NCBI GenBank assembly: GCA_029857955.1
Contig: JAOUFY010000002.1
Location: 58,141 to 122,140, forward strand
Direction: 5' to 3'
Origin: Spirochaetia bacterium
GTDB taxonomy: Bacteria; Spirochaetota; Leptospiria; Turneriellales; JAOUFE01
Length of the DNA stretch: 64,000 nt
Part shown: piece after piece, positions 47,084-64,000 of the stretch
How positions within the stretch are numbered: position 1 is the first letter of the stretch
How the letters are laid out: every line of letters starts with the position of its first letter
Made by a program: the position numbers and the translations under genes
Notes under the pieces: generated by a model
The model's input: only the letters and a program-made list of their open reading frames with translations
Told to the model about the DNA's origin: nothing
Databases searched by the model: none

Positions 47084-47101
47084 ATTATTATCTAAATTGA
47101 T

Positions 47102-47172: not shown

Positions 47173-47181
47173 GATATAAAA

Positions 47182-48360
47182 TCAATGCTTTTGATGAAAA
47201 TGTACCGATTCCTGGTAAAAAGGATCGCCTACAGGTTCAGGGTTTACTTTTGCATAAGCATTTAATACAGAATAACCGATTATACCTACTGCACCCAAAA
47301 ATAATCCGAATTCCATCCATTTAAATGGAAATCCATGTATATTATTTTCTTGAATTCCACCATAAACTAACCAAACTACATCAACAAATCCTATAAAAAT
47401 ATTCCATGCTGCTACTCTTGATAACATAACATAGTTTCTTTTCAGTTTACTTGAAAGAAGTATTAATAATGGTAATGCAAAATGTGTTAACCATAAAAAT
47501 ACTGTAAATGAAGCCCAAACTCCATGTAAACGTCTTTCAAGATAAACTGTTTCCTCTGGTAAATTTGCATACCAGGTTAACATGTGTTGTGAAAAAGCAA
47601 CATAACCCCAGTAACCGGTAAAGGCCAACTGGAACTTACCAAGGTCATGAAAATGTTCTTCATTCATACTTTTTAAGCCACCATTACTTTTAATAGCGCT
47701 TGTAATTAATATTACATAGGCAAAACCTGTAAACCAAATTCCTGCCATGCAATACATGGGAAACATAGTTGTTTGCCAATGTGGTTCTAATGACATAATT
47801 AAATCCATAGATGCGACTTCAAGAAAATAAGCAAAAATAATTAGAAAAGCAGCGCTTATTGCAGCGAGTACTCCTCGAGATGGTCCATTATGTCCTTCAT
47901 CTTGCTTGATAGATAACTTTCTCATATAATAGGCAACTGCAAACCATGACGTTAAATATACAACAGCTCTAATTATAAAAAAAGGTCTATTTAAATATGC
48001 TGATTTTCTTTGTAATATATGATCATTGTTCATAATATCTTCGTGAGTCCACTCATATAAATTATGCATTCCAAATATTAAAATAATAGCAACCAATACA
48101 GCCGCTACAATAATTAAATACAACATGGATTCCGGTACCCTTCTAAATACCACAGACCATTTAGAACCTGATACAAAATGTAACGCTGTAAAAAATCCGC
48201 CAAATAAACCTACACCCAGTATATAATACGCTGTGACAAGTAAACCCGCCCATGCCCTTTGTGAATCTACGATAAACCCGACTAATAAACTTGCTACACC
48301 AATAGCAATAAGTACATAAAAAATATTATTTAACTTAAGAGGTACTTTAAATTTTTCCAT
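47182..48360 (-). CDS. actF: Alternative Complex III subunit ActF (polytopic membrane subunit)
   Basis: 392 aa, about 10 TM helices. Last gene of the act cluster, following the monoheme ActE. Confidence 0.65.
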   Translation of the reverse strand: MEKFKVPLKLNNIFYVLIAIGVASLLVGFIVDSQRAWAGLLVTAYYILGVGLFGGFFTALHFVSGSKWSVVFRRVPESMLYLIIVAAVLVAIILIFGMHNLYEWTHEDIMNNDHILQRKSAYLNRPFFIIRAVVYLTSWFAVAYYMRKLSIKQDEGHNGPSRGVLAAISAAFLIIFAYFLEVASMDLIMSLEPHWQTTMFPMYCMAGIWFTGFAYVILITSAIKSNGGLKSMNEEHFHDLGKFQLAFTGYWGYVAFSQHMLTWYANLPEETVYLERRLHGVWASFTVFLWLTHFALPLLILLSSKLKRNYVMLSRVAAWNIFIGFVDVVWLVYGGIQENNIHGFPFKWMEFGLFLGAVGIIGYSVLNAYAKVNPEPVGDPFYQESVHFHQKH

Positions 48361-48376
48361 ATGATTTGCCTTCCCT

Positions 48377-49003
48377 TTATTTCATTGCTTCTATTTGTAA
48401 ATATTTAACATAATGCGCAATTGCCCATCTGTCAATTTCTGGTACCTGGGTAGCATAACTTTTCATTACGTTAATTCCTGTTGTAGTTACTAAAAAGATT
48501 CTTTCTACACTCCAGGTTTCGGTTCTAACCGGCTCTGTTTTATTTGGTCTTGCTATTGCTTTTATATTGTCAAATTTTGCTTTAACAAGTCCGTCACCTT
48601 TTCCGCCATAACCATGACAGGGTGAACAATAAATATTAAATCTTTGCTTACCACGTTCTAATGTAGCTTCATCACTTTTTAATGGACTGCTAATCATATG
48701 TGATCCAATTTCCTGCTCATCAGGGTTTGACGTTATTGTAAATCCGTTGATATTATAAGTAATATCCTGTTCATCTAAAACATAAGCTCCCGGTATTGTT
48801 CTATTAAATTTTGCATTTAAAAACTTATGTGCAATGGTATAATCTGGCGGAAATCGATTACCAGGTCTGTTTCCAATTGCATCAAATTTTTGACTGTCCA
48901 ATGCAGGGGAATACGCCATATCCATAAAATAATGGAATTTTCTTCTTATAGAGTTACAGCTAACCACGTTCGCTATAAGTATTAGTATTATTATTTTTTT
49001 CAT
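48377..49003 (-). CDS. actE: Alternative Complex III subunit ActE (monoheme cytochrome c lipoprotein)
   Basis: Lipobox-like LIANVVSC. Single heme motif CSPCHG. 208 aa. Confidence 0.7.
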   Translation of the reverse strand: MKKIIILILIANVVSCNSIRRKFHYFMDMAYSPALDSQKFDAIGNRPGNRFPPDYTIAHKFLNAKFNRTIPGAYVLDEQDITYNINGFTITSNPDEQEIGSHMISSPLKSDEATLERGKQRFNIYCSPCHGYGGKGDGLVKAKFDNIKAIARPNKTEPVRTETWSVERIFLVTTTGINVMKSYATQVPEIDRWAIAHYVKYLQIEAMK

Positions 49004-49030
49004 AATCTCACATCCTCATGTTTTATTTGT

Positions 49031-49579
49031 TTATACTTTAACAGGATTTATATCGGTATAAAGTCCCTGCAGTAACTTTTCAACATCAGACTTACTCATA
49101 TCGTCGCCGATCCAAATTGCAAAACCGTCAGATGTAACAGTATTTACTACTGGCCTTCTTGAACTTTTACCCAATCTTCCCAGATATAATGTTATACCAA
49201 GCGTAGCAAAGGCTGTAAACAATACTGTTAATTCAAACGTAATTGGTAGATATATGGGCCATGAAAATGGCGGCTTACCGCCAATTATCCTTGGCCAACT
49301 AGATGTATCAATCCATGTCATTGAAGAAAACGCAAATGTACCGCCAGTTAATGCCCCAATTGCTGATATAAATGGCACCCACGATCGGCTTAATCCCATG
49401 GCTTCCTGTAAATTATGTATTGGAAAAGGAGTAAAACAGTCGAATCGTTTTATTCCTGCATCTCGTACTTTTTCTGCGCCCTTGATAAGGCTTTCCGCAT
49501 CTTTTATTACGATAACCCAACCTTTATCAGGTTCCTCATATCGATATAATCCTTTTTTAACATCTTCAAAACTAGTCAT
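49031..49579 (-). CDS. actD: Alternative Complex III subunit ActD (DUF3341 membrane protein)
   Basis: AEKVRDAGIKRFDCFTPFPIHNLQEAMGL...GGKPPFSWP..ITFELTVLF matches the DUF3341/ActD pattern. Confidence 0.7.
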   Translation of the reverse strand: MTSFEDVKKGLYRYEEPDKGWVIVIKDAESLIKGAEKVRDAGIKRFDCFTPFPIHNLQEAMGLSRSWVPFISAIGALTGGTFAFSSMTWIDTSSWPRIIGGKPPFSWPIYLPITFELTVLFTAFATLGITLYLGRLGKSSRRPVVNTVTSDGFAIWIGDDMSKSDVEKLLQGLYTDINPVKV

Positions 49580-49623
49580 CTTTTTCCTCCCAAGTTTTTT
49601 TGATCAATAGACTAACCTGATTG

Positions 49624-51015
49624 TTAGTGACCAAAACCCTTTGCTTTATCGCCAGCCTCATCAGCCTTTAATTCAGCAACCGCTATTTGTGGCAATGCAC
49701 GTACAAATATAAGATACCAAAAAAAGAACCAACCAAATGATCCAACCAGCATGGCATAATCAAAAAAAGTTGGTACGTATAAATCCCAGCTTGATGGTAA
49801 GTAGTCTCTGTGAAGAGATGTAACGATGATAACAAATCTCTCAAACCACATACCAATATTCACCACAATGGATATTGCAAATAAAACATATATATTTGTG
49901 CGCAGTTTTTTAAACCACATAAAATGTGGCGAAACAACATTACATGTAAACATCGTCCAAAATGACCAAGCATACGGACCTTTTAATCTATTTAAAAATA
50001 CATACTGCTCCATATCATTGGCGCTGTAATATGCCATGACAAATTCAGTTGTGTATGCAAAAGATACCATCATTCCCGTAAGTAAAATTACGAGAGCCAT
50101 ATTTTCAAGGTGTTTTAAGGTGACATATTGTTTTAAACCAAATACTTCTCTTGAAATAATCATAATTGTCATCACCATTGCAAATCCCGAATAAATCGCA
50201 CCAGCAACAAAGTAAGGCGGAAATATTGTTGCGTGCCAACCAGGAATCACTGAAGTAGCAAAGTCAAATGATACAATCGAGTGTACTGAAAATACCAAAG
50301 GTGTAGAAATAGCTGCCAGAATTAACACCATTTTCTCATAATGAATCCATGTTTTCGCCGATCCTACCCAACCTATGGAAAGTATATTAACTACATTTTT
50401 TCGAAGCTTCAATAACGTATTACCTAATTTAGTTTTTGCTTCAATATTGACCAATCGATCTCTCATTGTCGCAAGATCAGGTACCAGCCCCATGTACCAA
50501 AAGATCAAAGAAACGGTAAAATAAGTTGAAATCGCAAAAACATCCCACAATAAAGGAGAACGAAAATTCACCCATAGAGGTCCTCTCTCATTAGGATACG
50601 GAAAGAAGAAAAATATTAACCATGGTCGACCTAAGTGAAGAACTGGAAATGTTAATGCTGTCATTACAGCAAAAATCGTCATTGCTTCAGCTGCCCTATT
50701 GATCGTAGTTCTCCATCTTTGCCTAAATAAATATAAAATTGCTGAAATTAACGTTCCAGCATGACCAATACCTATCCAAAAAACAAAGTTGATGATGTAA
50801 AATCCCCAACCCACCGGCGTGTTGATAGCAAAAATTCCAAGACCTTTGACAAAACTATAGCCAGCAATTGACCAAAACATCACAACCCCAGCTGTCGCCA
50901 AACCAAAAGCTATATACCATAATTTCGTAGGAAAACTTTCAAGAGGTTTTAATATATCATTATCTATTTCTCTATCAGGTTTACCGATATTATAAACATT
51001 TTCTAGTGCACTCAT
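49624..51015 (-). CDS. actC: Alternative Complex III subunit ActC (NrfD/PsrC-like quinol-interacting membrane subunit)
   Basis: 463 aa, polytopic NrfD-type. Directly downstream of the Fe-S/molybdopterin-like subunit. Confidence 0.8.
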   Translation of the reverse strand: MSALENVYNIGKPDREIDNDILKPLESFPTKLWYIAFGLATAGVVMFWSIAGYSFVKGLGIFAINTPVGWGFYIINFVFWIGIGHAGTLISAILYLFRQRWRTTINRAAEAMTIFAVMTALTFPVLHLGRPWLIFFFFPYPNERGPLWVNFRSPLLWDVFAISTYFTVSLIFWYMGLVPDLATMRDRLVNIEAKTKLGNTLLKLRKNVVNILSIGWVGSAKTWIHYEKMVLILAAISTPLVFSVHSIVSFDFATSVIPGWHATIFPPYFVAGAIYSGFAMVMTIMIISREVFGLKQYVTLKHLENMALVILLTGMMVSFAYTTEFVMAYYSANDMEQYVFLNRLKGPYAWSFWTMFTCNVVSPHFMWFKKLRTNIYVLFAISIVVNIGMWFERFVIIVTSLHRDYLPSSWDLYVPTFFDYAMLVGSFGWFFFWYLIFVRALPQIAVAELKADEAGDKAKGFGH

Positions 51016-51036
51016 ACTTTCTCCTTCCGTACTCTG

Positions 51037-54000
51037 TTAACCTTTATTCATAATCCTGGTTAAATAATTAACTCTAGGTTTAACATTTACCTCTTCTAAC
51101 ATTCTATAGGATCTTTCAGTTGCAGCTAATTGTGCAACCGTTTTGGTTTTATCACCTAAATCGCCAAATGTAATCGCATTAGATGGACAACCCTGTTGAC
51201 ATGCTGTCTTCAGGTCATCTTCGTTAATCTTATGACCATCATTTTTGGCCATTTGTCTCTGTTCATTTATTCTTTGTACACAAAATGAACATTTTTCAAT
51301 AACCCCGCGACCTCTGACAGTAACATCAGGATTTAAAGACATTTGCATTGGATCTTTTAACTTTCCATATTGATTTTCAAACCAGTTAAAACGTCTTACT
51401 TTAAAAGGACAGTTGTCAGAACAATATCTTGTTCCAACGCATCTATTATAGGTCATATCGTTTAGACCTTCTGAACTATGTGAAGTTGCTCCTACCGGAC
51501 AAACATTTTCGCATGGAGCATTCTCACAATGTTGGCACATTACCGGCGCAAAATGTGTACTTGGATTAGATGGCTCACCTTCATAATAACGGTCAATTCT
51601 CAACCAACTCATTTCACGACCACGCCATACTTCTGATTTACCGGTTACTGGTATATTATTTTCAGAATAACAGCTCATAACACATGCAGAGCAACCCGTA
51701 CACTTGCTTAAATCTATAGTCATACCCCATTTATACACGTCTGAATTGGTTTCGAGGGCATAGTTTTGTAATGGATACAAACCCTTTCCTTCCAGTTTAT
51801 GCTCATGATTACCAGCTCTTTTATCTTTTTTATAATCTTTTAACTCTGCGTATCGAACAAGAGCTCTACCTTCCATTTCATGATGTCTTTGAGTAGTTGC
51901 AAGCTCATAACCACCTTTTACTTTTTGTACGGATACTAGAATACCAGTATATTTTGTTCCTGTACTTGAGAATTTAGCTAATTTTAGCGCATTAACGCCT
52001 AAACCTTTCGCAATATTTCCAAGCTCGTCATGACCATAACCAATAGCAATGGCAACGCTGCCTTTTGGGATACCTGGTTGTACATACAATGGAATATGAA
52101 CTTCTTTTTCACCATTCTTTAAACTTAAAATATCTCCCATTCTCCATCCATTCGATTTAGCATCCTCTGTAGAAACCGCAACAAAGTTTTCCCATACGAT
52201 TTTAGTAATTGGATCAGGTAATTCATGACGGAAAGCATTATTACCGCCCTGTCCATCACCAATTTGAATGCTTTCATACAATGATAAAGTAAATCCAGAG
52301 GCATCTTTTTGTGTTTTCCCAACACCAGCCAGTGCATTTGCATTAAAACCACGAGCTCCAGAGTACCCTGAAGTTTTTCTGCTAACAAAATAACCATCTG
52401 CCAGAGTTTGATCCCATAATTTTGCAAAATTGCCAGAAAGATACGATGGTGCACTATTTGCTTTTATAAACTGATAGTAACTCATATTTGAACCCTGTAA
52501 ATGCAACCATGCATCACCAGGAGAAAGTGTATCAAACAATGTACGCAACACTGGTTGAGCAATTGTGTACACACCTGTTGTGTATGCATCATTCCATGAC
52601 TCAAATGAATGACTCAAAGCGATTACAATGTTTGACTTAACTGTACTTTCATCCATAAAATATGAAAGACTAATTACATTTTTAACCTTGCTTAATGCTT
52701 CTAAAACACCTGAATCCGCAGGAAGATCAAAAACGGGATTAACACGATCAAGAATCAATACATCAACTTTTCCATTGTTCATTTCTTGAATTAAATTATT
52801 TAATTCAAAATTACCTGCAAGACTATCCAAATCTGCAGCCGGTACGTCTGATAAAATTGTTGATCCATCATTTCCAAGAATTGAATTTAATAGATTTATC
52901 ACAATCTCTAATTCGCCTGAAATTTCAGACCTTGAGGAAACACCGCCGCCAACTACGATTGAATTGCCAGCATACTTTTTTAATTCATCTGCCAGTCCCT
53001 TGATTTTATCAATATTTAAACCTGTTATTTCGGATGTTTTCTCTGGCGTATAGTCACGAACTGCTGCCAAAATTGCACCGTTTCCAGCATATACACTAAA
53101 AGGCAATAGTAAATTGGCAAGTCCTAATGCCAGAGCAACGTGAGTACCTGAATTAATCGGCATTCTATCATCTGCATTAGCGCCAGTTAGACTCATCATA
53201 CTTTCAGCTACGATAAGTCTGTTCATTTTTTTATCAGGACTTCGAAGATTTGAATAACGCTTGGTATTTACTTCAGGTGATATCCATGTACCTAGAAAAT
53301 CACCTTCGATAGATAAAATTAATTCTGCCTTATCAAATCGATATTGAGGTATAATTGATTTTCCATAGCTTTTTCTTTGAGCTTCAACATAGGATTGCAT
53401 TGTACCTGAAAAATCATAAACAATTTGTTTAGCCTGCGGTTTACTTCGTAAAAAACCATTGATTACACTTTTATCTGCAGGGCTAAAACTCTGTCTTGAC
53501 AGTATTCTAATGGTTTGTCCACCATTAATCACTTCATTTGCCTGTATTATGGCATCGGCGGTTGAAATATCAACGTGTTTATCACCTTTTTTAATTTTAG
53601 AAGATTTTAATCTATCCGGATCATATAAGTCCCATATACTTGAAAAAGCATCTGCGGTCATCGCACCCTGATTGATTGGATGATCATCATGTCCGTCAAT
53701 TTTAATCGGTTTACCTTCTCTTGTTTTAACCAATACCGGAACTACACCTCGTGAACTTGTTAATGCTGTAGCATAATAAGCAGCTATACCAGGTTGAGCT
53801 TCAGGAGCTCTTACAAGATATGGCATAATTTTTTCAACTGGTTCTCTGGAACACTTTAAACCAGCCATTCCAATCGAAGCCCCCATTATACCAAGAAATT
53901 TTTTTCTGTCGAGTTTATAACCGATACCTTTATCGATTAATTCCTGTACTGTTCCAGAAAATTCCTGACTTTTATCATCCCATTTATTTTCATACTTTGC

Positions 54001-54069
54001 TCGATCTTTTGATTCAACCGAACGCCACATTTTTTTTTCTTGATATTTTGATTTCATAAATTTGATCAC
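51037..54069 (-). CDS. actB: Alternative Complex III subunit ActB (molybdopterin-oxidoreductase-like domain fused to a 4Fe-4S ferredoxin domain)
   Basis: Tat-like DRKKFLGIMGASIGMAG. A large MopB-like domain. C-terminal Cys clusters CTGCSACVMSC, CQHCENAPCENVCP, CVGTRYCSDNCP and CSFC...CQQGCP. Confidence 0.9.
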   Translation of the reverse strand: MIKFMKSKYQEKKMWRSVESKDRAKYENKWDDKSQEFSGTVQELIDKGIGYKLDRKKFLGIMGASIGMAGLKCSREPVEKIMPYLVRAPEAQPGIAAYYATALTSSRGVVPVLVKTREGKPIKIDGHDDHPINQGAMTADAFSSIWDLYDPDRLKSSKIKKGDKHVDISTADAIIQANEVINGGQTIRILSRQSFSPADKSVINGFLRSKPQAKQIVYDFSGTMQSYVEAQRKSYGKSIIPQYRFDKAELILSIEGDFLGTWISPEVNTKRYSNLRSPDKKMNRLIVAESMMSLTGANADDRMPINSGTHVALALGLANLLLPFSVYAGNGAILAAVRDYTPEKTSEITGLNIDKIKGLADELKKYAGNSIVVGGGVSSRSEISGELEIVINLLNSILGNDGSTILSDVPAADLDSLAGNFELNNLIQEMNNGKVDVLILDRVNPVFDLPADSGVLEALSKVKNVISLSYFMDESTVKSNIVIALSHSFESWNDAYTTGVYTIAQPVLRTLFDTLSPGDAWLHLQGSNMSYYQFIKANSAPSYLSGNFAKLWDQTLADGYFVSRKTSGYSGARGFNANALAGVGKTQKDASGFTLSLYESIQIGDGQGGNNAFRHELPDPITKIVWENFVAVSTEDAKSNGWRMGDILSLKNGEKEVHIPLYVQPGIPKGSVAIAIGYGHDELGNIAKGLGVNALKLAKFSSTGTKYTGILVSVQKVKGGYELATTQRHHEMEGRALVRYAELKDYKKDKRAGNHEHKLEGKGLYPLQNYALETNSDVYKWGMTIDLSKCTGCSACVMSCYSENNIPVTGKSEVWRGREMSWLRIDRYYEGEPSNPSTHFAPVMCQHCENAPCENVCPVGATSHSSEGLNDMTYNRCVGTRYCSDNCPFKVRRFNWFENQYGKLKDPMQMSLNPDVTVRGRGVIEKCSFCVQRINEQRQMAKNDGHKINEDDLKTACQQGCPSNAITFGDLGDKTKTVAQLAATERSYRMLEEVNVKPRVNYLTRIMNKG

Positions 54070-54086
54070 TCCTTAATAAAAATTCA

Positions 54087-54668
54087 TCAATAATGGCAGG
54101 TGCTACAATCGACACGAGCTCCCAATGCCTTATTCTCCCGATGACAACTTATGCAGAATCCCATATTCAATGGTTTTACTTGCTCAACAACTTCCATAGT
54201 TGCGATATCGCCATGACATGGCTTACAAGCCTCTTTAGTAGCTTGACCTGGTTTTAATAGCGCATGAATATGAGGTTGATGTGAAAAACGTACGTGATCT
54301 GGAAGATTATGTATTCTTATCCATTCTGGAACTTTATTGTCCTCCCAGTATTTACGCAATTTTTTAATTTCCCCAGTATAAAATGCATCCGTTTTTTTAT
54401 CTCCTGTATCTACATTATCACCAACAATTTCATGGCAGTTAAAACATATGTTCAAGCTCGGTACTGCAGCCTTTTTACCCATGGTAACACCAGTATGACA
54501 ATACTGACAATCCATATTGTATTTACCGGCATGTACTTTATGACTGTATTGTATAGGCTGTATTGGAGCGTATCCAACTCTTGGATTTGGCGGGTAGCCC
54601 ATCATTACCCAAATAAATCCGCTAATCAGTACAACTGGGATACCAATTTTTAATAACTTACTTTTCAT
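54087..54668 (-). CDS. actA: Alternative Complex III subunit ActA (pentaheme cytochrome c, membrane anchored)
   Basis: Five CxxCH motifs (CQYCH, CFNCH, CKPCH, CISCH, CSTCH). N-terminal TM helix. Confidence 0.85.
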   Translation of the reverse strand: MKSKLLKIGIPVVLISGFIWVMMGYPPNPRVGYAPIQPIQYSHKVHAGKYNMDCQYCHTGVTMGKKAAVPSLNICFNCHEIVGDNVDTGDKKTDAFYTGEIKKLRKYWEDNKVPEWIRIHNLPDHVRFSHQPHIHALLKPGQATKEACKPCHGDIATMEVVEQVKPLNMGFCISCHRENKALGARVDCSTCHY

Positions 54669-54705
54669 AATTCACCTTTCATATTAAATTTTATTATATC
54701 ATTCT

Positions 54706-55077
54706 CTATTCTACAGAACTTGCTGCTAAAGATTTAACATATTCTGCAACTTGAGTAATTTGTTCATCAGTTAAAACTTCTGCCCAGCTTGGCATAGCCG
54801 TGCCTTCAAGACCTTCATTAATTGTTCTTTTTACTTCTTCAATACTTGATCCATATTTAAACCCATCTTTTTTATAATTTCTTGGTTTTGGATTTAATGC
54901 TGCAGCGCCAGGTCCATCACCTTCACCACTAATCCCGTGACAGGCTGAACAGTTTGCTTCATAGATATTTTTACCATTTTCAATGGATTCATCGGCTTTC
55001 TTTTTTTTATTACATTGTAGAGTAATTAAAGAAAGAACGCCTAATAAACATAAAAATGTAATTGTTTTTTTTATCAT
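54706..55077 (-). CDS. Class I c-type cytochrome (monoheme, probable lipoprotein)
   Basis: CSACHG plus a distal Met (GTAMPSW). Probable start at the second Met (MIKKTITFLCLLGVLSLITLQC), which has a lipobox-like LQC. The track ORF extends to 55095. Confidence 0.8.
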   Translation of the reverse strand: MIKKTITFLCLLGVLSLITLQCNKKKKADESIENGKNIYEANCSACHGISGEGDGPGAAALNPKPRNYKKDGFKYGSSIEEVKRTINEGLEGTAMPSWAEVLTDEQITQVAEYVKSLAASSVE

Positions 55078-55291
55078 AATACTCTTTACTCCCATAATGT
55101 GTTTTATCTATTTTTAATAAACACAAAAATAAACTGACTTTTTTATTTTTTTTTAGTCGGTTTATATCCAATCTCAATGTCACTTAAAATATATTATTTC
55201 ATACGTCTATTTTTTTTTAAATTAATACTTGCATTAACCAAAAAAAATAATATTAGACTTTCGTAATATTGTTATTAATATTTTACTTCTT

Positions 55292-55318
55292 TAAGATATG
55301 TAAAAAAATCGTCGATAA
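55292..55318 (+). promoter_or_regulatory. Candidate sigma-28 (FliA)-type promoter upstream of the acidic-protein/fliM operon
   Basis: TAAG-N15-GTCGATAA, against the consensus TAAA-N15-GCCGATAA. Lies about 85 nt upstream of ATG 55402. A sigma-70-like TTGACA at about 55353 is an alternative. Confidence 0.25.
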
Positions 55319-55401: not shown

Positions 55402-57294
55402 ATGAAAAATAACTCTCTAAACATTGAATATGATATTTTATCATCTGATGACCCTATCGAAGAAATGCCTTTAAAAATTAACAATTTTATAAATCCGATT
55501 ATAGATCTATTGCACCCTGAAGCAAGCAGTATACATGAAGATATAAATCACTTAGAACTTACTGAAGATGAGATAGACGATGTTTTAACAAAAAGTGATA
55601 CTTTCCATTTAGACATGGAGGAAATTCATGATGATTTTAAACTGGAAACTTCAAATCACGATTCAATACCTTCTTTGAATATTAATGATGAAAATGATAA
55701 TGAAATTATTTCACATAATGACTTTGACTTTACTAATAATTCATATGATAACATCGATGTAGATGTAACGAAAAGCAATATTGAACAACCGCAAGACAAT
55801 AGTTTTGAAACAGAGTTTAATATTGATGACAATGAAAAAAAAGATACTTCTATTGAAGATGATTTTTTTGAAGAAACTGAGGAAGGGCCAATTGCGCTTT
55901 CTGACGAAGAACTCGAAAGTGCGCTCTCAGATACTTCAAGCCTGACTGCTGATACACTTGATACGACTGAAAAATCAAATGATAATGAAGTAAGTTTAGA
56001 AGATGAATTTGATTTTACCTATAATCCAGATGATAACATCGATGTAGACGCAAAGAAAAGCAATATTGAACAGCCGCAAGACAATAGTTTTGAAACAGAA
56101 TTTAATATCGATGACAATGAAAAAAAAGCTACTTCCACCGATGATAATTTTTTTGAAGAAACAGATGAAGGACCAATTGCACTTTCTGACGAAGAACTCG
56201 AAAGTGCACTCTCGGAAACTTCAAGCCTGACTGCTGATTCACTTGATACGAACGAAAAACCAAATGAAAAGGAAACAAGTTTAGATGATGAATTTGATTT
56301 TTCCTATAATCCACATGATAACATCGATGTAGACGCAAAGAAAAGCAATATTGAACAACCACAAGACAATAGTTTTGAAACAGAGTTTAATATTGATGAC
56401 AATGAAAAAAAAGATACTTCCATTGATGATAATTTTTTTGAAGAAACAGATGAAGGACCAATTGCACTTTCTGACGAAGAACTCGAAAGTGCACTCTCGA
56501 ATACTGAAAACGCAACCTCAGATCAACCGATAATTCTAGAAGATGTATCTAATCAAGAGATAAGCCTTGAAGATGACTTTGATTTTTCATTTAAGCCTGA
56601 TGAAAGTAAAAATGGTGAAATAGAAAAATCTTCAAATAATATCGAACAAGTTAATGATGATCTATTTGAAAAAGATATGAAAATAAATGAATCAAATACA
56701 GATGATTCGATGGAAAAAAACTTTTTTGAAGAAAATGAAGATGAACCTATTACACTTTCTGAAGAAGAACTTGAAAATACATTAATGGAACCAGAACCTT
56801 CGCAAAAGAATTATGAAGGCAATGAAATTGATGAAAAATTAAACGAAAATTTTGATATTCCTGTTTTTGATGATGAACTTTTAGATGAAACAGAATCAGT
56901 TAATTCAAGCGATGATGAAAATACAAGTAACACAATAAGTGATGCTGATAAAGCCTATAAAGAAACCTCTCAACAAGTAGATTCAGAAGAAGACAATGAG
57001 TGGGAAATAGAATTGACGCCGGATGACTACAAAAAAACTCCTGAAATAAAACAGGATCTGGAAGTTAAACCATCAGCAAGCAATGATGCATCTGATATGA
57101 TTTCAGATGAGGAAGGTAAAGTGAATTTTCATGAAGAGTCCAATGTTTCTTTGCCAAATCGCGATGAACTAAAAAAAGTTGTAGCCTATCTGGACAATCT
57201 TCTTGGTGAATTGCCCGACGAATTAATTGAAAAGTTTGCTAAATCAGAGTATTTTAAATTGTACCAAAAAGTAATGGAAGATCTTGGTTTATAA
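55402..57294 (+). CDS. Extremely acidic repeat protein (630 aa) with a conserved-looking helical C-terminal tail
   Basis: D/E/N/S-rich throughout. Three near-identical 95-aa repeats plus one degenerate copy. C-terminus LPNRDELKKVVAYLDNLLGELPDELIEKFAKSEYFKLYQKVMEDLGL. No known domain recognised. Confidence 0.6.
   Translation: MKNNSLNIEYDILSSDDPIEEMPLKINNFINPIIDLLHPEASSIHEDINHLELTEDEIDDVLTKSDTFHLDMEEIHDDFKLETSNHDSIPSLNINDENDNEIISHNDFDFTNNSYDNIDVDVTKSNIEQPQDNSFETEFNIDDNEKKDTSIEDDFFEETEEGPIALSDEELESALSDTSSLTADTLDTTEKSNDNEVSLEDEFDFTYNPDDNIDVDAKKSNIEQPQDNSFETEFNIDDNEKKATSTDDNFFEETDEGPIALSDEELESALSETSSLTADSLDTNEKPNEKETSLDDEFDFSYNPHDNIDVDAKKSNIEQPQDNSFETEFNIDDNEKKDTSIDDNFFEETDEGPIALSDEELESALSNTENATSDQPIILEDVSNQEISLEDDFDFSFKPDESKNGEIEKSSNNIEQVNDDLFEKDMKINESNTDDSMEKNFFEENEDEPITLSEEELENTLMEPEPSQKNYEGNEIDEKLNENFDIPVFDDELLDETESVNSSDDENTSNTISDADKAYKETSQQVDSEEDNEWEIELTPDDYKKTPEIKQDLEVKPSASNDASDMISDEEGKVNFHEESNVSLPNRDELKKVVAYLDNLLGELPDELIEKFAKSEYFKLYQKVMEDLGL
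55723..56577 (+). repeat. Tandem direct repeat, 3 x 285 bp (in-frame, 95 aa each), with a fourth degenerate unit to about 56800
   Basis: Unit starts (TTT GAY TTT = FDF) at 55723, 56008 and 56293, with the degenerate unit at 56578. Long stretches are nearly identical at nucleotide level (e.g. aacatcgatgtaga...agcaatattgaaca.ccgcaagacaatagttttgaaacaga.tttaatat.gatgacaatgaaaaaaaag). Confidence 0.9.
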
Positions 57295-59003
57295 TGGGAT
57301 TAAAAGACAAAGCAAGTAATTCTCGAAACGCATCCAGACAAATTGGGGCATTAAAAAATGACCAGGATTTTTACAATTCGTATGCCCAGGATGAAATTTC
57401 TTTTGATCAAGAAAAAATGCTCGATATTTTAAAAAAAAAAGGTAAAATAGATAAAGAGGAGTTATTTAAAACTGGAAAAACTGGACTTGAAGAAAATCTT
57501 TCACGTTATCTTTTACCGGACGATTTATCTGGTTCAACACAACCTGCAGATTCAGATTATTCATTAAATAGTCGTTTAGAAGCACTGATAAACCTGATTG
57601 AACTCTCCAAAGAATTGGCGTTAACCGATAATCCTGAAGAACTATGGGAGTCTTTATTATTTAATATACTTGGTCAGGTCGGAGCAAGAGAGGCGGCAAT
57701 TTTTATTAAAGATGATAACCGCATGCAGCTAAAAGCATATAAAGGTTTTATTTTTCCTGAAAACTTTAATTTATCAAAACGTTCAGGAATTGAACGAATT
57801 TTACAAAAAGATTTAAATATTCATTATGGAAATAAATTATCAAATGATATTGTCGGTGATGAATATACCTTATTTACGTCACTTCAGATCGAACTTGTAA
57901 TTCCTATCATTCAAATTGAAGAATTAAATGGTTTTATTTTAATTGGAAAAACAATTGGAGCCAGCGACTATTCTATAGAAGATTTATTGTATTTAAAACT
58001 TCTCGGTGAAGTGATAGGATCATTTCATTCTGTAATACAAAAAAGTGAAATCATAAACAATCAAAAAAAAATATGGAATTCTAGAGAAAAAGTTTATCAA
58101 AAGTACCTTTACTTTCAACAACAAATACAATCTGGTAAAACCCCTGAAGAAACTCAGCAAATATTCAATACTTATATGACTGATCTTTTTAAATTTCAAG
58201 CCTATCTATTGTTTATTTTAAACGAAAAGGAAGAGTATCTTCTCACTGCTCAAAAAGGATTACAGGAAAGTAGTTATAAAAACTTGCGATTTTCTCCAGA
58301 AGATGAAGTCATCTTCAAATGCCAGCAACACCATACATGGTTTACTTATGAAAACTTGTTAGATGAAACGATGTTTAGCAGCAATTTATCTAAAGAAGAT
58401 AAGATCATCTTAAAAGAATGCAGGATTTTGCCTTTACATTTTCATGGTAACCTTTATGGCTTTTTTATTTTACTAAATGTAAAAAATGATATACCTACAG
58501 AATACATGCATTACGCACAAAATATAATCATCACTTATTTTTGGTATTATCTAAGCCACATTTATTTAAAAAAGGCGCAAAAAAACTTAAAAATATCAAT
58601 TACTGATCCAATGCACGCAATTAAAGATGTAATATCTCGTCACGAAAAAATACTTTCTAAAAAAGGAATCCCCTACTCCATTTTTATTATTCAAATTACC
58701 AATCTTGATCGTTTAGAAAATCTTTTTGGAGAAAAATTTACTTTTACATTACGAAGAAAAATTAAAAAAATATTAAATCAGGAATTTTCAAATTCAAAAT
58801 TTATTTCTGAATTATTTTCCAATAAATTTATAGTTATTTTTGAAAAAATCGATAAATCCATGCTATGGATTTACGATAAAAATTTTATTAAAAAAGTAAA
58901 TGCGGCTTTTGATAATGAACAAAAAAGACCTCTCTTAAATAATCGCCTTTATTCACGACCTGAAGATAAGGAAAGAACTCTTGAACAATTAATAAATTAT
59001 TAA
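57294..59003 (+). CDS. GAF-GAF protein with a degenerate GGDEF-like C-terminal domain
   Basis: The start overlaps the upstream stop (TAATG). GAF-like cores (GAREAAIFIKDDNRMQLKAYKGF...ELVIPIIQIEELNGFILIGK; a second in LLFILNEKEEYLLTAQKG...ILPLHFHGNLYGFFILL). The C-terminal segment has GGDEF-domain spacing (IQITNLDRLENLFGEKFTFTLRRKI...) but reads FSNKF where GGDEF would sit. Confidence 0.5.
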   Translation: MGLKDKASNSRNASRQIGALKNDQDFYNSYAQDEISFDQEKMLDILKKKGKIDKEELFKTGKTGLEENLSRYLLPDDLSGSTQPADSDYSLNSRLEALINLIELSKELALTDNPEELWESLLFNILGQVGAREAAIFIKDDNRMQLKAYKGFIFPENFNLSKRSGIERILQKDLNIHYGNKLSNDIVGDEYTLFTSLQIELVIPIIQIEELNGFILIGKTIGASDYSIEDLLYLKLLGEVIGSFHSVIQKSEIINNQKKIWNSREKVYQKYLYFQQQIQSGKTPEETQQIFNTYMTDLFKFQAYLLFILNEKEEYLLTAQKGLQESSYKNLRFSPEDEVIFKCQQHHTWFTYENLLDETMFSSNLSKEDKIILKECRILPLHFHGNLYGFFILLNVKNDIPTEYMHYAQNIIITYFWYYLSHIYLKKAQKNLKISITDPMHAIKDVISRHEKILSKKGIPYSIFIIQITNLDRLENLFGEKFTFTLRRKIKKILNQEFSNSKFISELFSNKFIVIFEKIDKSMLWIYDKNFIKKVNAAFDNEQKRPLLNNRLYSRPEDKERTLEQLINY

Positions 59004-59057
59004 TTACAGAAAAAGTATATTAATAAAAATGGATTTTTTGCCGAAAATCTATTAGTT

Positions 59058-60122
59058 ATGTCTCACTACCTTCATAAATTTAAAAAACATAAAAATCAAA
59101 GTTTATTTGTTAACAAATTACAATACTATATAATTGTTTATTTCGTTGTAGCTTTCCCCTCGATCATTCAATCACAGGGATGGCCTAAATATGACCAGCG
59201 CGGGAATCTAACTGAAAGTTATTCCAGTCAAGGTTTAGCATTATACATTACATCCAGCAAATCCAGATATCTTACGGATGAAACTATTTCAATTAACTGT
59301 CAGATTAAAAATGAAGGCCTGTATCCAATCACGATTTATTTAAATAATGAAATATTAAAAAATTTTACATTTATTATACGTGATAATAAGGGGCAAAGCT
59401 TGCCATTAAAAACTGATTCTATAAAAAGCAGATCTAGAGAAATTAAAAATCAAACTTATTTTGGAGATTACACCGCAACCGACTATAATGCAAGAGCAAT
59501 GGTCATTCAGCCTGGTGAATCTGTTACAAAGTCTTTTAATCTAAGTGAGTTTTTAACAAAAGATGTAATAAATTCAACGTCAAATACCCTCAATGTAATG
59601 GCTTATTTTTATCCAAATCCTGAGCAGTCCAATCAACTGTATATTCCTTCCAGTAACCAGTATAGCATTTACATAGATTCTGGAAACATCTATAAAACAA
59701 ATAAATATTACAGTGAACATCAATTAGCCATGCAGGAATTAAAAGTTTCTCCCAAAGAGGTGATATATTTAATGTTAACTGCTGAATATGAAAAAAACTG
59801 GTTAAATTTTTTCAAATATTTAGATTTAAAAGAGATAATACGAGATTATCCTGATCAGGCAAGACAATACATAAGAGCCCCTGACGATAAAAAAAATCTT
59901 GTAATTGAAGATTTTAAAAATTATTTAATGGGTTCATCACATCATAAATTGTTAAAATTTGAAGTTGTCAGTGAAAATATAGAAAATAAAAATGCAACAG
60001 TAAAGGTTAAAGCAATGAGAGAAGTAGATGGATTTGACAGAGATTTAATCTATACATATTATTTAAGTGAAAGAGATAAATTATGGCAAATTTCCGGTGT
60101 GGATTCACAACTGGCGAAATAA
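59058..60122 (+). CDS. Hypothetical exported/anchored protein (354 aa)
   Basis: N-terminal hydrophobic segment YYIIVYFVVAFPSIIQSQG. A beta-rich middle and an alpha+beta C-terminal part. No motif recognised. Confidence 0.5.
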   Translation: MSHYLHKFKKHKNQSLFVNKLQYYIIVYFVVAFPSIIQSQGWPKYDQRGNLTESYSSQGLALYITSSKSRYLTDETISINCQIKNEGLYPITIYLNNEILKNFTFIIRDNKGQSLPLKTDSIKSRSREIKNQTYFGDYTATDYNARAMVIQPGESVTKSFNLSEFLTKDVINSTSNTLNVMAYFYPNPEQSNQLYIPSSNQYSIYIDSGNIYKTNKYYSEHQLAMQELKVSPKEVIYLMLTAEYEKNWLNFFKYLDLKEIIRDYPDQARQYIRAPDDKKNLVIEDFKNYLMGSSHHKLLKFEVVSENIENKNATVKVKAMREVDGFDRDLIYTYYLSERDKLWQISGVDSQLAK

Positions 60123-60184
60123 ATGATTGTACACAGTTATAAAATATGAGACGATTTAATGGATAGAAATTACGGCGGGATAAA

Positions 60185-61207
60185 ATGACAGATATACTAT
60201 CACAAGACGAAATTGATCAGTTATTAAATGCAATATCAAGCGGAGATATTCAACCTGAAGAATTTTCTCAACAGGCCGAACAAAAAAAAGTAAAAATCTA
60301 TGACTTTAAAAGACCGGACAAGTTTTCTAAAGATCAAATTAGAACGGTTCAGATGATGCATGAAACTTTTGCGCGTCTGACAACAACGGCTTTATCTGCA
60401 AAACTGAGATCGATGGTTGGCGTACACGTTACCAGTGTGGATCAGTTAACCTATGAGGAGTTTATACGTTCTATTCCAAACCCGACAACTCTGGCATTAA
60501 TCAATATGGATCCTCTAAAAGGTTCGGCAATTCTAGAAGTTGATCCTGCCATTACATTTACGATCATTGATCGATTATTTGGCGGTACGGGTGAACATTA
60601 TAAAATTAACCGTGAATTAACCGACATTGAACTATCCGTTATTGAAGGTATTGTTGTACATATACTTGGAAACCTTCGTGAAGCCTGGTCTACTGTAATT
60701 GACCTTCGACCGCGACTTGGTACCATTGAAACAAATCCACAATTTGCGCAGATCGTACCTCCAAATGAGATGGTAATGCTCATTACACTTGAAACTAAAA
60801 TCGGTGAAAGCGAAGGTATGATGAACCTTTGTATACCATACATCACCATTGAACCTATCATTGCTAAACTTTCAGCCCAATACTGGTTTTCTTCCATACG
60901 AAGAGGAGAATCAGAAGTAAATATGAAAATTATACAAAATCGACTCGAAAATGTAGAAGTAGAAGTTCGAGTTGAAGTTGGTGAGGCAATGCTTCCATTT
61001 TCGGAGTTCATCAATCTGGAAGTTGGCGAAACGATTAAATTAAACACTCGAGTTCATGATGACTTTACATTGCGTGTGGGCGAAAGACCCAAATACAAAT
61101 GCCGTCCGGGACGCGTTGGAGCACACCTTGCGGTGCAAATTGGCGAAGAAATACATGAGGTACCTGATGAATTCCTCATTACCAGTCGTTCTCAGGAAGA
61201 TTATTAA
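60185..61207 (+). CDS. fliM: Flagellar motor switch protein FliM
   Basis: N-terminal CheY-P-binding motif LSQDEIDQLLNAI. YDFKRPDKFSKDQIR, GGTG loop (DRLFGGTGE). C-terminal SpoA-like domain. 340 aa. Confidence 0.9.
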   Translation: MTDILSQDEIDQLLNAISSGDIQPEEFSQQAEQKKVKIYDFKRPDKFSKDQIRTVQMMHETFARLTTTALSAKLRSMVGVHVTSVDQLTYEEFIRSIPNPTTLALINMDPLKGSAILEVDPAITFTIIDRLFGGTGEHYKINRELTDIELSVIEGIVVHILGNLREAWSTVIDLRPRLGTIETNPQFAQIVPPNEMVMLITLETKIGESEGMMNLCIPYITIEPIIAKLSAQYWFSSIRRGESEVNMKIIQNRLENVEVEVRVEVGEAMLPFSEFINLEVGETIKLNTRVHDDFTLRVGERPKYKCRPGRVGAHLAVQIGEEIHEVPDEFLITSRSQEDY

Positions 61208-62251: not shown

Positions 62252-62322
62252 TTTATCCTGGTTTTATTTATACATGTCATTTTTTTTTATTGACTTAACG
62301 AGCAAATTTGTTTTTTTGCGTT

Positions 62323-63105
62323 ATGAAAAAATTTATCGGATGCTCTATTTTATTGGTTATAAGCTTATTAACGTTTAACTGTTCCAAAAATTATGATGCT
62401 CTGTATCTTGAAGCCATGGATTTAAAAAATCAAGGTAAATACACAGAAGCCAGAGAGGTTTTTGAAAAAGCTGCAGTTAAAAAAGAAACTCCTGAGGTTT
62501 ATAAGGAAATTGCAAATTTTTATATTGAATATTCAAAAGATTATAATAAAGCTGAAGATTATCTTCAAAAATCTTTAAAACTTAATCCCAATTATCCGAA
62601 CTCTATTCATAACATGGGTCTTGTTTATTTAAAAAAATATGAAAAAAGTGTAGAAAATAATGAAATAAATAATGAGTATTTGAAAACTTCCGAACAATGG
62701 TTTACAAAAAACATAAACTTAAACCCTGACTTTGGATTATCATATGCAGAGTACGGTATGGTCTTGTTTTATAATAAAAAAAATAACGATGCTGTTTTAA
62801 AAATTAAAACCGGTATTGAAAAAGGAGCTAATAAAAGTTACGCCCATCTCTTACTCGGAAAAATTTATTTTAATGGTTATCAGGATTATAATCTAGCGCT
62901 AGAAAACTTCAATATCGCTTATAATGATTTTGGCAAAGATCCTTTTTTATTAAAAATGATGGCTCTTACAAATAAAAAATTAAACCATATCAATGATGCT
63001 CGTACCTATTATCATAAATACATAAAATCTCTGGAAGACTCAGGATTACCTGAAGAAATGATTAAAAAAGCCAGAGAAGATGAATCAAAACTGATCTCAG
63101 GTTAA
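62323..63105 (+). CDS. TPR-repeat lipoprotein
   Basis: Preferred start ATG 62323 (MKKFIGCSILLVISLLTFNCSK, spirochaete-style lipobox). The track ORF starts at TTG 62308. Several TPR-like units (e.g. AEDYLQKSLKLNPNYPNSIHNMGLVYL). Confidence 0.6.
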   Translation: MKKFIGCSILLVISLLTFNCSKNYDALYLEAMDLKNQGKYTEAREVFEKAAVKKETPEVYKEIANFYIEYSKDYNKAEDYLQKSLKLNPNYPNSIHNMGLVYLKKYEKSVENNEINNEYLKTSEQWFTKNINLNPDFGLSYAEYGMVLFYNKKNNDAVLKIKTGIEKGANKSYAHLLLGKIYFNGYQDYNLALENFNIAYNDFGKDPFLLKMMALTNKKLNHINDARTYYHKYIKSLEDSGLPEEMIKKAREDESKLISG

Positions 63106-63175
63106 GTTTACATTAGCATAGGAGCGATAATAATTAATATAAATATAATATTTTAGTATATTTATATTGATCATT

Positions 63176-64000
63176 ATGCCTCCAAAAAGTAAAATTAGAA
63201 ATACTTCGTTAAAGTCATTTGCCGGCAAAAAAGCGGCCAGGAATATGCAAGGATCATTGTATTCCGGTAACTCAGAAAAATCTGAAAAAAGCGCTAAAGG
63301 TTCTGAGTTATCAAATTTACTGAAAAAACAATTCTCTCCGGGCAAAAATATCAATGTTACACATCGCGCCTATGAGATCATTCCAAGAAACAGCCCGTAT
63401 AGCCACCATTTTAAAACTCTGTTAAATGCAGAAAGTTTTATTTCTAAAAAAGAATTTCAGATGGCCATTGACATCTACCAAAGATTATTAAATAAAATAC
63501 CACTTAGATCTTCCAGAGAAAAAATTGAAGAAAACATTCAAGACATTCAAGGTTTTCTTACTGATTATGATGAACCATTTTCTCCTAAAGTTCAACTGGA
63601 CATAACATACTCAGGACCACCCCAGGGCATGCAGTCTAATGCCCCTGGACAAGCCCAGGGCGGACTTACTGGTCCTCTGGGAAGTACTCCCATTCAAATC
63701 CAAATGGGTATGCCCCAGATGCCCCAAATACCTCAAATGCCTCAAGGAGGAGGACAACCTTCTGGTATGGGTGGTATGGGCGGAATGTCTCCACAAATGG
63801 GTGGCGCTCCGATGGGCGGCGCAATGCCTCCATTTAGTCAGGGACAAGTACCTGCAAGTATACCCTTCGGCTTTATGCAGGTGCAGGCATTATCTGATCA
63901 AGATCATAAACAACAATCTCCCACAAGTCAAAAACCCTTTGGATTTTTTGATAAAGTAAAAGAACCTGATGAAGAACATGGAAAAGCAAAACGACCTTCT
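63176..64000 (+). CDS. Hypothetical protein with a P/Q/G/M-rich low-complexity region (3' partial, runs off the window)
   Basis: Open-ended ORF, absent from the track. ATG 63176 gives 275 codons with no stop: MPPKSKIRNTSLKSF...EFQMAIDIYQRLLNKIP...GPPQGMQSNAPGQAQGG...QMGMPQMPQIPQMPQGGGQPSGMGGMGGMSPQMGGAPMGGAMPPFSQGQ... Confidence 0.6.
   Translation, partial: MPPKSKIRNTSLKSFAGKKAARNMQGSLYSGNSEKSEKSAKGSELSNLLKKQFSPGKNINVTHRAYEIIPRNSPYSHHFKTLLNAESFISKKEFQMAIDIYQRLLNKIPLRSSREKIEENIQDIQGFLTDYDEPFSPKVQLDITYSGPPQGMQSNAPGQAQGGLTGPLGSTPIQIQMGMPQMPQIPQMPQGGGQPSGMGGMGGMSPQMGGAPMGGAMPPFSQGQVPASIPFGFMQVQALSDQDHKQQSPTSQKPFGFFDKVKEPDEEHGKAKRPS

Follow-up and report, generated by a model that had tools for sequence, protein, structure and literature searches.

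An undescribed partner gene of fliM and an adjacent acidic-protein/pseudo-cyclase gene pair in a Turneriellaceae-like member of the Leptospirales

The window analysed here is a stretch of 64,000 nucleotides (nt) from a Spirochaetia bacterium (assembly GCA_029857955.1, contig JAOUFY010000002.1, positions 58,141 to 122,140) and contains, towards its 3' end, the gene of FliM, a switch protein of the flagellar motor, preceded on the same strand by three genes, here named A, B and C, and followed by a convergent dus gene. The source is a metagenome-assembled genome (MAG; locus tags OEV78_01225 and OEV78_01230), and its nearest FliM relatives are Turneriellaceae-like and other Leptospirales MAGs. 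The five genes show the following distribution (positions are those of the window):

55402-57294, + strand: gene A, encoding a hyper-acidic repeat protein of 630 amino acids (aa); open reading frame (ORF)
57294-59003, + strand: gene B, encoding a GAF-GAF-degenerate-GGDEF pseudo-enzyme of 569 aa; ORF, start overlapping the stop of A
59058-60122, + strand: gene C, encoding a predicted exported protein of 354 aa; ORF
60185-61207, + strand: fliM, encoding the flagellar motor switch protein of 340 aa; ORF, TIGR01397
61212-62168, - strand: dusB, convergent with fliM and bounding the unit; TIGR00737, 296 bits

The stop of A and the start of B share 1 nt as TAATG, gaps of 54 and 62 nt separate B from C and C from fliM, respectively, and the stop codon of dus lies 4 nt past that of fliM. 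This layout had been described in an earlier note made from the DNA letters, and all of its elements were recovered at the same positions; the convergence of dusB after fliM is also seen in close relatives. In the survey of window ORFs, which covered those of at least 150 aa, an alternative complex III operon, genes of amino-acid metabolism, a type II secretion protein K-like gene and a CHASE2 cyclase gene were found; no flagellar gene besides fliM, and in particular no fliN, fliL or motAB-type gene, turned up in the 64 kb. Shorter ORFs were screened solely for a FliN-like SPOA domain, and the search with the SPOA domain of FliM found no FliN-like ORF in the window. Window proteins were scanned against Pfam and NCBIfam with curated cut-offs, and none of the products of A, B and C, which the earlier note had left as unknowns, matches a described flagellar family. 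The comparison set contains 160 related loci: 80 are the best FliM-encoding loci of species-representative genomes, onto each of which the window proteins were mapped, and 80 are metagenome loci from a scan with the C-terminal domain of A, used for the comparison of A-B.

Gene C is located immediately 5' of fliM in all 80 Leptospirales loci retrieved through FliM. The gap between both genes has a median of 3 nt, and they overlap (gap of 0 or less) in 31 of the 80 loci, 27 of them by 4 nt. The genes 5' of the pair vary by lineage and encode, among others, argininosuccinate lyase, a MiaB-like radical-SAM protein, a peptidyl-prolyl isomerase, glycosidases and a sulfatase. Because the adjacency is invariable, the gaps are tiny or negative and the flanking genes change, C-fliM behaves as an autonomous, translationally coupled bicistron, and C is an undescribed conserved partner of fliM.

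Genes A and B show a different distribution. They lie directly 5' of C in 13 of the 80 FliM loci, which are those of the closest relatives of the window (FliM 78-92% identical), and in locus L073 they share the strand of C-fliM and lie 5 kb upstream of it. In 66 of the 80 loci A-B is not within 10 kb of fliM; Turneriella, with A elsewhere in the genome, is among them. Among the 80 metagenome loci, a B-family protein directly follows the acidic A protein in 46, only five of which carry C-fliM; the gap between A and B is at most 15 nt in 52 of 61 pairs. Many metagenome loci show A-B after atpF-H-A-G-D-C, and the corresponding contig of L. interrogans contains, in this order, atpBEFHAGDC, a 93-aa gene, an A homologue of 1061 aa and a B homologue of 718 aa (LIC_11247), with no fliM. 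The small gene between atpC and A (L161:7707-7988), which ends 12 nt before A, has a product that is hydrophobic in an N-terminal segment and gives a weak SLBB hit. A-B is an undescribed conserved acidic-protein/pseudo-cyclase pair, spirochaete-wide and usually far from fliM, and its adjacency to C-fliM is a feature of the window's clade only. In a separate 'Spirochaetia' clade (L111, L120, L130, L136, L141 and similar loci, e.g. L136:512-4893) the gene after A encodes an unknown protein of 366 aa, unrelated to B, and two MptE-like genes (PF01973, Maf-type) come next, whose family includes flagellin-glycosylation factors; the 366-aa protein was considered as a diverged B and rejected, as hhalign shows no relation (E = 0.33).

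The earlier note had taken the four genes as one accessory module of the switch complex, set at an orphan fliM. What stands of this is the partnership of C with fliM, which is invariable and often has a 4-nt overlap. A single conserved four-gene module does not stand, since A-B accompanies C-fliM in so few genome loci and is without it in most metagenome loci: for A and B, conservation next to fliM was not found outside the clade, and in L. interrogans they follow the atp operon. Nor is the position of fliM an oddity. An isolated fliM is the rule in the Leptospirales, as the fliY gene of L. interrogans stands first in another operon, fliY-LA2612-fliPQR-flhB-flhA-flhF (PMC3224694). The operon picture is thereby corrected to an isolated fliM that is normal in the order and a four-gene arrangement that is clade-specific.

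The fliM product itself matches TIGR01397 with 393.3 bits (cut-off 219.6) over residues 3-323 of 340, and contains the CheC-like middle domain (PF02154, 6.9e-83, residues 39-229) and the SPOA domain (PF01052, 6e-21, residues 253-323). By these matches it is an ordinary full-length canonical C-ring switch protein, with nothing unusual in the protein itself. Its translation opens with MTDILSQDEIDQLLNAI and includes one feature of interest here:

60197-60235, + strand: EIDAL-type predicted motif LSQDEIDQLLNAI for binding of phosphorylated CheY (CheY-P) in the FliM N-terminus; from the translation

The EIDAL motif of FliM/FliY N-termini binds CheY-P (PMC6946799), and the EIDAL-type opening agrees with the earlier description of a FliM that keeps its CheY-P-binding N-terminus.

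Protein C shows no Pfam or NCBIfam hit, and its family profile gave nothing significant against PDB sequences; the search retrieved some 30 clustered homologues, none with a name other than hypothetical. Three regions were distinguished in it:

59058-59177, + strand: predicted signal peptide of C, aa 1 to ~40; from the sequence, with a K-rich n-region, a hydrophobic helix at 18-32 (model) and IQS/QG
59220-59678, + strand: beta-sandwich of C, aa 55-207; AlphaFold model, overall predicted local distance difference test (pLDDT) 76.7
59745-60119, + strand: NTF2-like alpha+beta domain of C, aa 230-354; block pLDDT mostly 87-94

The N-terminus of the homologues carries positive charge and comes with a hydrophobic stretch and with cleavage sites of the AXA type (VHA/QG, SEA/QS and AGA/ET), and no lipobox Cys is seen in C or in these homologues. 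C is most likely, judging from this N-terminus, a Sec-exported soluble periplasmic protein, in line with the exported or anchored product noted before. The NTF2-like domain is the better-predicted part of the model, which was built on an alignment of 29 sequences. Foldseek matches in the PDB are Fn3-like domains of GH3 enzymes and Spo0M for the beta-sandwich, and the VirB8-like OrfG, the CaMKII hub and 3k7c for the NTF2-like domain; no FliL, collar, stator-ring or other flagellar protein is among the 50 matches listed for C. Only two points would speak for a flagellar role of C: it is linked to fliM universally and with translational coupling, and it is predicted in the compartment that houses the spirochaete flagella.

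Four promoter-like sites were located around the genes; the consensus used for sigma-28 was TAAA-N15-GCCGATAA:

55292-55318, + strand: sigma-28-like motif TAAG-N15-GTCGATAA upstream of A; from the sequence
58853-58879, + strand: alternative sigma-28-like site TAAA-N15-TACGATAA in the 3' end of B; from the sequence
59021-59047, + strand: sigma-28-like site TAAT-N15-GCCGAAAA between B and C, putative promoter of the C-fliM pair; from the sequence and the spacer boxes of relatives
60034-60062, + strand: sigma-70-like site TTGACA-17-TATTAT in the 3' end of C; 11/12 match

The sites upstream of A and in the B-C spacer each show 3/4 and 7/8 matches to the two halves of the consensus. In the window the core pattern occurs four times against 1.1 expected, barely above chance, and similar patterns lie inside unrelated genes; the weight falls on conservation. 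An equivalent of the motif upstream of A, which the earlier note had pointed out, is found 31-68 nt upstream of the A homologue in 19 of 51 loci against about 2 expected, and it holds a fixed position in two distant clades, the window's and the 'Spirochaetia' clade with the MptE/Maf-type genes. Just 5' of C, TAAx-N15/16-xCCGATAA is present in about 30 Leptospirales loci, and of 15 close relatives having A-B next door, 13 show a CCGA[TA]A box within the short B-C spacer. Taken over all genes, 39 of 126 A or C genes have a sigma-28-like motif in the 150 nt upstream of them, against 21 of 1381 other genes. Leptospira encodes FliA (LIC_11380), and sigma-28 sites have been predicted before flaA1, flaB1, flaB4 and fliS (PMC12655853, PMC5243855). 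These motifs suggest that the motility regulon includes A-B and C-fliM as two units, each with its own promoter, and separate transcription of C-fliM appears likely because the sigma-28-type -10 box is conserved in the B-C spacer. Sigma-70 and terminator scans were uninformative, with 42 promoter-like sites against a shuffled expectation of 37.6 and no terminator-like hairpin found between the + strand genes; the site at 60034-60062 could be an internal fliM promoter, and is weak since the regional total of such sites is not above the shuffled expectation. The transcription start site supplements for L. interrogans do not list these genes under LIC names. Two further occurrences of the pattern were observed: a minus-strand TAAC-N15-TCCGATAA at 62333-62359, about 165 nt 5' of the dus start and in the 5' end of a TPR gene, which may be chance, and, in other Leptospirales, a near-perfect consensus (TAAACTTGACA..N..GCCGATAA / GTCCGATAA) preceding an M23 peptidase gene that is convergent with fliM (L040:11060-12073 and L052:4549-5646, both on the - strand).

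Protein A contains 30.8% aspartate plus glutamate, with an isoelectric point of about 4.05 and a net charge of -154, is probably disordered and has no Pfam or NCBIfam family. It fits the earlier reading as a hyper-acidic repeat protein and shows the following features:

55692-56505, + strand: tandem repeat of A, 285 bp x 2.9 copies (95-aa protein repeat); Tandem Repeats Finder, 90% matches, score 1327
55558-55587, + strand: motif copy 1, LTEDEIDDVL, aa 53-62, the copy nearest to LSQDEIDQLL of FliM; regular expression
55897-55926, + strand: motif copy 2, (FFEETEEGPIA)LSDEELESAL, aa 166-175; regular expression and alignment
56182-56211, + strand: motif copy 3, LSDEELESAL, aa 261-270; regular expression and alignment
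56467-56496, + strand: motif copy 4, LSDEELESAL, aa 356-365; regular expression and alignment
56755-56784, + strand: motif copy 5, (FFEENEDEPIT)LSEEELENTL, aa 452-461; regular expression and alignment
57148-57291, + strand: conserved C-terminal domain of A, ~48 aa, YLDxLLGxLPxxxIxxFxxSEYFxLYxKV; alignment

The 285-bp repeat is recent. What recurs, within the acid tracts and across the family, is a motif with the consensus FF-x-E-[DE]3-4-E-P-I-A-L-S-x-D-E-L-[DG]-N-I-L, in pattern form (FF..E)EPIALSxDELDxIL; in the window's A the last four of the five copies are preceded by FFEE..E(G/E)PI(A/T). Homologues carry from 1 to 13 copies, and 98 family proteins of at least 300 aa contain 264 instances against 1.8 expected from composition-preserving shuffles, with at least one in 80 of the 98. 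Because the repeat periods (95, ~55 and ~44 aa) and the surrounding sequence differ between species, the motif is the conserved element, and the pattern indicates that selection keeps the motif and not the repeat unit.

The core of the motif, L-S-x-[DE]-E-[LIM]-[DEG]-x-[IVLA]-L, retains the hydrophobic and acidic positions of LSQDEIDQLL of FliM. When a hidden Markov model (HMM) from 227 motif instances was run against about 7,500 locus ORFs, the best hits after the A family itself were as follows: argininosuccinate lyase (ArgH) scored 8.6 bits and the FliM N-termini 8.3 bits (E ~1), with DnaK next. The resemblance is not statistically significant: since FliM scores no higher than the chance matches ArgH and DnaK, it is a lead and not a result. 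In L054 and L080 the 470-aa product of the gene upstream of C contains an LSQDEFDSIL match; it is argininosuccinate lyase, the match is by chance, and the case shows the weakness of the FliM resemblance.

The last ~48 residues are the only part of A that aligns across homologues. In the full HMMER scan this domain was found in 1585 cluster representatives at E <= 1e-3, in proteins of 46-1156 aa and nearly always at the extreme C-terminus; its family profile gave nothing significant against PDB sequences, it has no Pfam relative, and a Pfam scan of 30 proteins carrying it showed no recurrent partner domain, DUF7880 alone occurring in three. Named homologues of A belong to L. interrogans, L. perolatii, L. 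sanjuanensis, Turneriella, Treponema and Treponemataceae, and all are annotated as hypothetical. Two faint Pfam hits, PF27359 (TP_0179) and PF26591 (DUF8186_C), are recorded among the precomputed annotations of the L. interrogans homologue, and the literature found to mention TP0179 is population-genomic only. L073 (L073:2-4269) contains a more distant homologue of A that lacks the LSxDELDxIL motif and, by eye, seems to have a PAS-type segment inserted ahead of the same C-terminal domain; the B protein paired with it has 735 aa. On this evidence the domain seems attachable to other N-terminal modules.

Protein B shows the GAF-GAF-degenerate-GGDEF architecture assigned to it in the earlier note:

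57564-58022, + strand: GAF domain 1 of B, aa 91-243; Pfam GAF_3, model and Foldseek to tandem GAFs
58143-58574, + strand: GAF domain 2 of B, aa 284-427; family profile against PDB (5w10, E = 2e-4; 3ci6, E = 1e-3) and model
58614-58994, + strand: degenerate GGDEF-like domain of B, aa 441-567; family profile against the DosC GGDEF (E = 4e-3) and Foldseek to IsPadC
58815-58829, + strand: GG(D/E)EF signature position of B, FSNKF, aa 508-512; alignment to DosC

The Pfam GAF_3 match (residues 113-243, E = 3e-3) reaches 18.3 bits, below the cut-off of 27, and with the family profile against PDB sequences residues 272-409 match a GAF (E = 2e-4) and residues 446-532 a GGDEF (E = 4e-3). In the AlphaFold model (pLDDT 74.9) the N-terminal 90 residues are poorly ordered and a long helix (245-279) joins both GAFs; Foldseek retrieves bacteriophytochrome-diguanylate cyclases first (E = 5e-13) and then the tandem GAFs of PDE2A, PDE5, PDE6 and CyaB2 (E = 1e-10 to 1e-8). 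The first residues, MGLKDKA (57294-57320), show an invariant MGL and nearly invariant K6 and A7 among 13 close homologues, and LIC_11247 starts with MGLLERV, a conservation that is striking given the otherwise poorly ordered N-terminal region. B homologues of other loci exceed the Pfam GGDEF cut-off (PF00990) with 25-37 bits. From 53 extracted B-family sequences, 52 have residues aligned at the signature, and none of these keeps GGDEF or GGEEF, RIGQGKF and RVDRHKF being typical variants. Because the signature is lost throughout the family, B is, on sequence grounds, a pseudo-enzyme with a GGDEF fold unable to make cyclic di-GMP (c-di-GMP). The I-site position, which we take from PleD to be five residues upstream of the signature, reads SNSK in place of RxxD, and distant members keep only the D (e.g. 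KESD and SDPD); since the I-site is lost as well, c-di-GMP binding at the usual site is unlikely in the window's lineage.

Other features around the locus are the following. Downstream of dus, a TPR protein (62308-63105) with a lipoprotein-like N-terminus (..LLTFNCSK) is conserved in this position in the close relatives L001-L004 and L010; it was considered as the Borrelia collar protein FlcA and rejected, as the best NCBIfam hit, the C-terminal model NF047371, gives 40.6 bits against a cut-off of 300, a generic TPR similarity. At its end (63103-64000) the window breaks off inside an unknown gene with its ATG at 63175, whose product shares 53% identity with a protein of 549 aa found in relatives (L081:14497-16144 and L002:13799-15427) and shows a Pro/Gln/Gly/Met-rich low-complexity region and no Pfam hit. 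It is preceded by a sigma-28-like TAAG-N16-AGCGATAA (63103-63130), conserved in L002, L081 and L085, and may be a third motility-regulon unit nearby. Upstream and divergent from A, with a spacer of 306 nt and 21% GC, an alternative complex III-type operon (47182-55095, - strand) encodes small cytochromes c, a 1010-aa molybdopterin/FeS subunit, NrfD-like and ActD proteins, a cbb3-type cytochrome c and a 392-aa unknown protein. A tRNA-Gly(TCC) at 47102-47172 (- strand) lies inside the 5' part of a called ORF of 231 aa (46490-47185; riboflavin synthase-like, Lum_binding), and the start of the riboflavin synthase-like gene must therefore lie further downstream. Signalling genes nearby encode an 806-aa CHASE2-adenylate/guanylate cyclase (37687-40107, - strand), a cyclic-nucleotide cyclase that is of note given the tandem GAFs of B, and a 508-aa HAMP-SpoIIE/PP2C phosphatase (42701-44227, - strand).

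We consider it probable, at roughly 0.6, that this stretch of a Turneriellaceae-like Leptospirales member comprises two bicistronic units side by side, both of them probably read from a sigma-28 (FliA)-type promoter of their own. Gene content, folds, synteny, the coupling of the genes and the conservation of the motif are what the data show; transcription units, localisation, interactions and a part in motility are inferred. C-fliM would be the ancestral, order-wide unit in which the synthesis of C is translationally tied to that of FliM, and C would serve the endoflagellar motor, as a periplasmic part of it or as an assembly factor, in the Leptospirales specifically. A-B would be a separate spirochaete-wide cytoplasmic pair that happens to abut C-fliM in the window's clade only. 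In it, A would be a presumably disordered scaffold showing several copies of FFxE..EPIALSxDELDxIL and ending in the 48-aa domain, through which it may dock on B so that both act together, and the sigma-28-type promoter would place the pair among late motility and chemotaxis functions.

Several points weigh against this interpretation. The box upstream of A was not found where A-B follows the atp operon, L. interrogans included. In the window the B-C box has the variant -10 GCCGAAAA and ends only 10 nt before the ATG of C, and read-through from A-B into C-fliM is possible, both being on the same strand with a 54-nt gap and no terminator-like hairpin between them. A sigma-28-dependent fliM is at odds with the textbook flagellar hierarchy. 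The predicted folds of C are generic and match no known flagellar protein, its proposed flagellar role coming from gene linkage only, and the models of C and B are of moderate confidence (pLDDT 75-77) and were made from shallow alignments. The genus Leptospira is absent from the 80 best FliM loci, and the link of the pair to it comes from one sentence in a paper; word-indexed protein and profile searches, which gave only about 30 MAG proteins, did not reach C homologues in this genus, and no literature on the fliM neighbours LIC11835 and LIC11837 was found.

Among the alternatives, the one that survives best is that A-B is unrelated to motility, a signalling or scaffold pair perhaps of the envelope or metabolism, with an accidental adjacency to fliM and boxes that are due to chance or to another sigma factor. 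The location of A-B directly after atpC without a sigma-28-like box in Leptospira and many other loci favours it, as do the sigma-28-like patterns inside unrelated window genes and the score of the A motif against FliM, no better than that of the ArgH and DnaK chance hits. This alternative is nevertheless doubtful, since in two distant clades the box stands at a constant spacing upstream of A, in numbers far above expectation, one of these clades has two MptE/Maf-type genes after A, and the adjacency of A-B and C-fliM persists across the clade down to 78% FliM identity.

Less likely still is the operon of the earlier note, a switch-complex accessory module in which the GAFs of B would sense a small ligand and act on FliM. 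It is consistent with four genes on one strand with a 1-nt overlap, short gaps and no + strand terminator-like site between them, with the retention of the whole order in 13 genome loci of the clade, with the position of A-B just 5 kb from C-fliM on the same strand in L073, and with the sigma-28-like boxes before both A and C. The separation of A-B from fliM in most Leptospirales loci (Turneriella included), its place after the atp operon in L. interrogans and many metagenome loci and the conserved promoter-like box in the B-C spacer argue against it.

A further, equally tentative proposal regards A as a multivalent mimic of the FliM N-terminus. Schuhmacher et al. reportedly found in 2015 that the EIDAL motif of FliM/FliY N-termini also binds FlhG. 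A disordered A, made together with late motility proteins, might bind CheY-P or FlhG through its 1-13 EIDAL-like motifs and compete with the switch, acting as a CheY-P sink, buffer or polar concentrator, and a catalytically dead GAF-GGDEF B, docked on the C-terminal domain of A, might tune the availability of A upon binding of a small ligand. If true, this could bear on the shaping of the CheY-P signal and on coordination in spirochaetes with motors at both cell ends, and a functional resemblance of the motif to FliM would make A a new kind of chemotaxis-signal modulator.

FliL shows a single membrane anchor and an SPFH-like periplasmic domain of ~110 aa. That C is a diverged FliL or another known flagellar protein (collar or stator-ring) in the fliL position is highly improbable and was rejected, because, although the place of C is immediately 5' of fliM and its hydrophobic helix at the N-terminus leads into a periplasmic part, neither FliL nor any flagellar family matches it in Pfam or NCBIfam at E <= 0.1, its 354 aa are about twice the typical FliL length, its predicted beta-sandwich and NTF2-like folds are not SPFH-like, the listed Foldseek matches are without a flagellar protein, and its N-terminus resembles a cleavable signal peptide and not a membrane anchor.

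Three families to which no function has been assigned (A, B and C) become candidates for spirochaete motility, which is a virulence determinant in pathogenic Leptospira. Across the order no gene but C shows an invariable, translational tie to fliM, and its product is predicted in the periplasm, the compartment of the endoflagellum and of the spirochaete-specific motor additions; the gene upstream of LIC_11836 thus gives knock-out and cryo-ET work in L. biflexa or L. interrogans a concrete target. The A family is large, with ~1,600 sequence clusters carrying the C-terminal domain, and the sources looked up are Leptospira, Turneriella and Treponema. For LIC_11247, recently catalogued as an orphan degenerate GGDEF protein, there is now a partner gene that is conserved and, in some lineages, a promoter of flagellar type, which narrows the search for its function.

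Compared with known systems, the likenesses are partial. Many bacteria show the order fliL-fliM-fliN, which is also found in the Borrelia flgB operon (motA-motB-fliL-fliM-fliN). C, too, has an N-terminal hydrophobic segment and a periplasmic body and is tightly coupled directly 5' of fliM, but it is not FliL by sequence or predicted fold, and no fliN, motA or motB flanks C-fliM. With the Borrelia collar proteins FlbB, FlcA-C and BB0236 (PMC8609358, PMC11750108) C would share the character of a lineage-specific periplasmic motor-linked protein, but no sequence similarity to them was detected. The A motif differs from the EIDAL motif of FliM/FliY in being internal and multi-copy and in having its own conserved upstream part (FFxE..EPIA), and the D of EID is often G in it, e.g. 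LSDEELGNLL in Leptospira.

Among the known counterparts of B is LIC_11247 of L. interrogans (UniProt Q72SX5, annotated as 'cGMP-specific phosphodiesterase'; sequence from the supplement of PMC12943098), which belongs to the same family (BLASTP E = 4e-30 over 513 aa, covering both GAFs and the GGDEF-like domain), shares the MGL N-terminus, has a dead signature (RIGQGKY, against FSNKF in B) and is also preceded by an A-family acidic protein. It differs in being only 24% identical, in a longer acidic N-terminal extension and in its position after the atp operon and not beside fliM. It has been listed as a newly recognised GGDEF protein without catalytic residues, untested and judged inactive, in a paper that is silent on the partner gene A and on a motility link (PMC12943098). 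Like the degenerate GGDEF receptors and adaptors FimX and the GTP-sensing GGDEF of CC3396 (cited in PMC12943098), B keeps the fold without the catalytic residues and is, by analogy, presumably a sensor or adaptor, but it has no EAL or PilZ partner domain.

Finally, with the FliM family, of which LIC_11836 of L. interrogans is an example, the FliM of the window shares the EIDAL-type N-terminus, the CheC-like middle and the SPOA C-terminal domain, and its gene is, like that of L. interrogans, apart from fliY/fliN, as the distal gene of a small operon (PMC4820103, PMC3224694). What had remained undescribed in relation to it is the identity of the upstream partner C and the sigma-28-type box before the pair.

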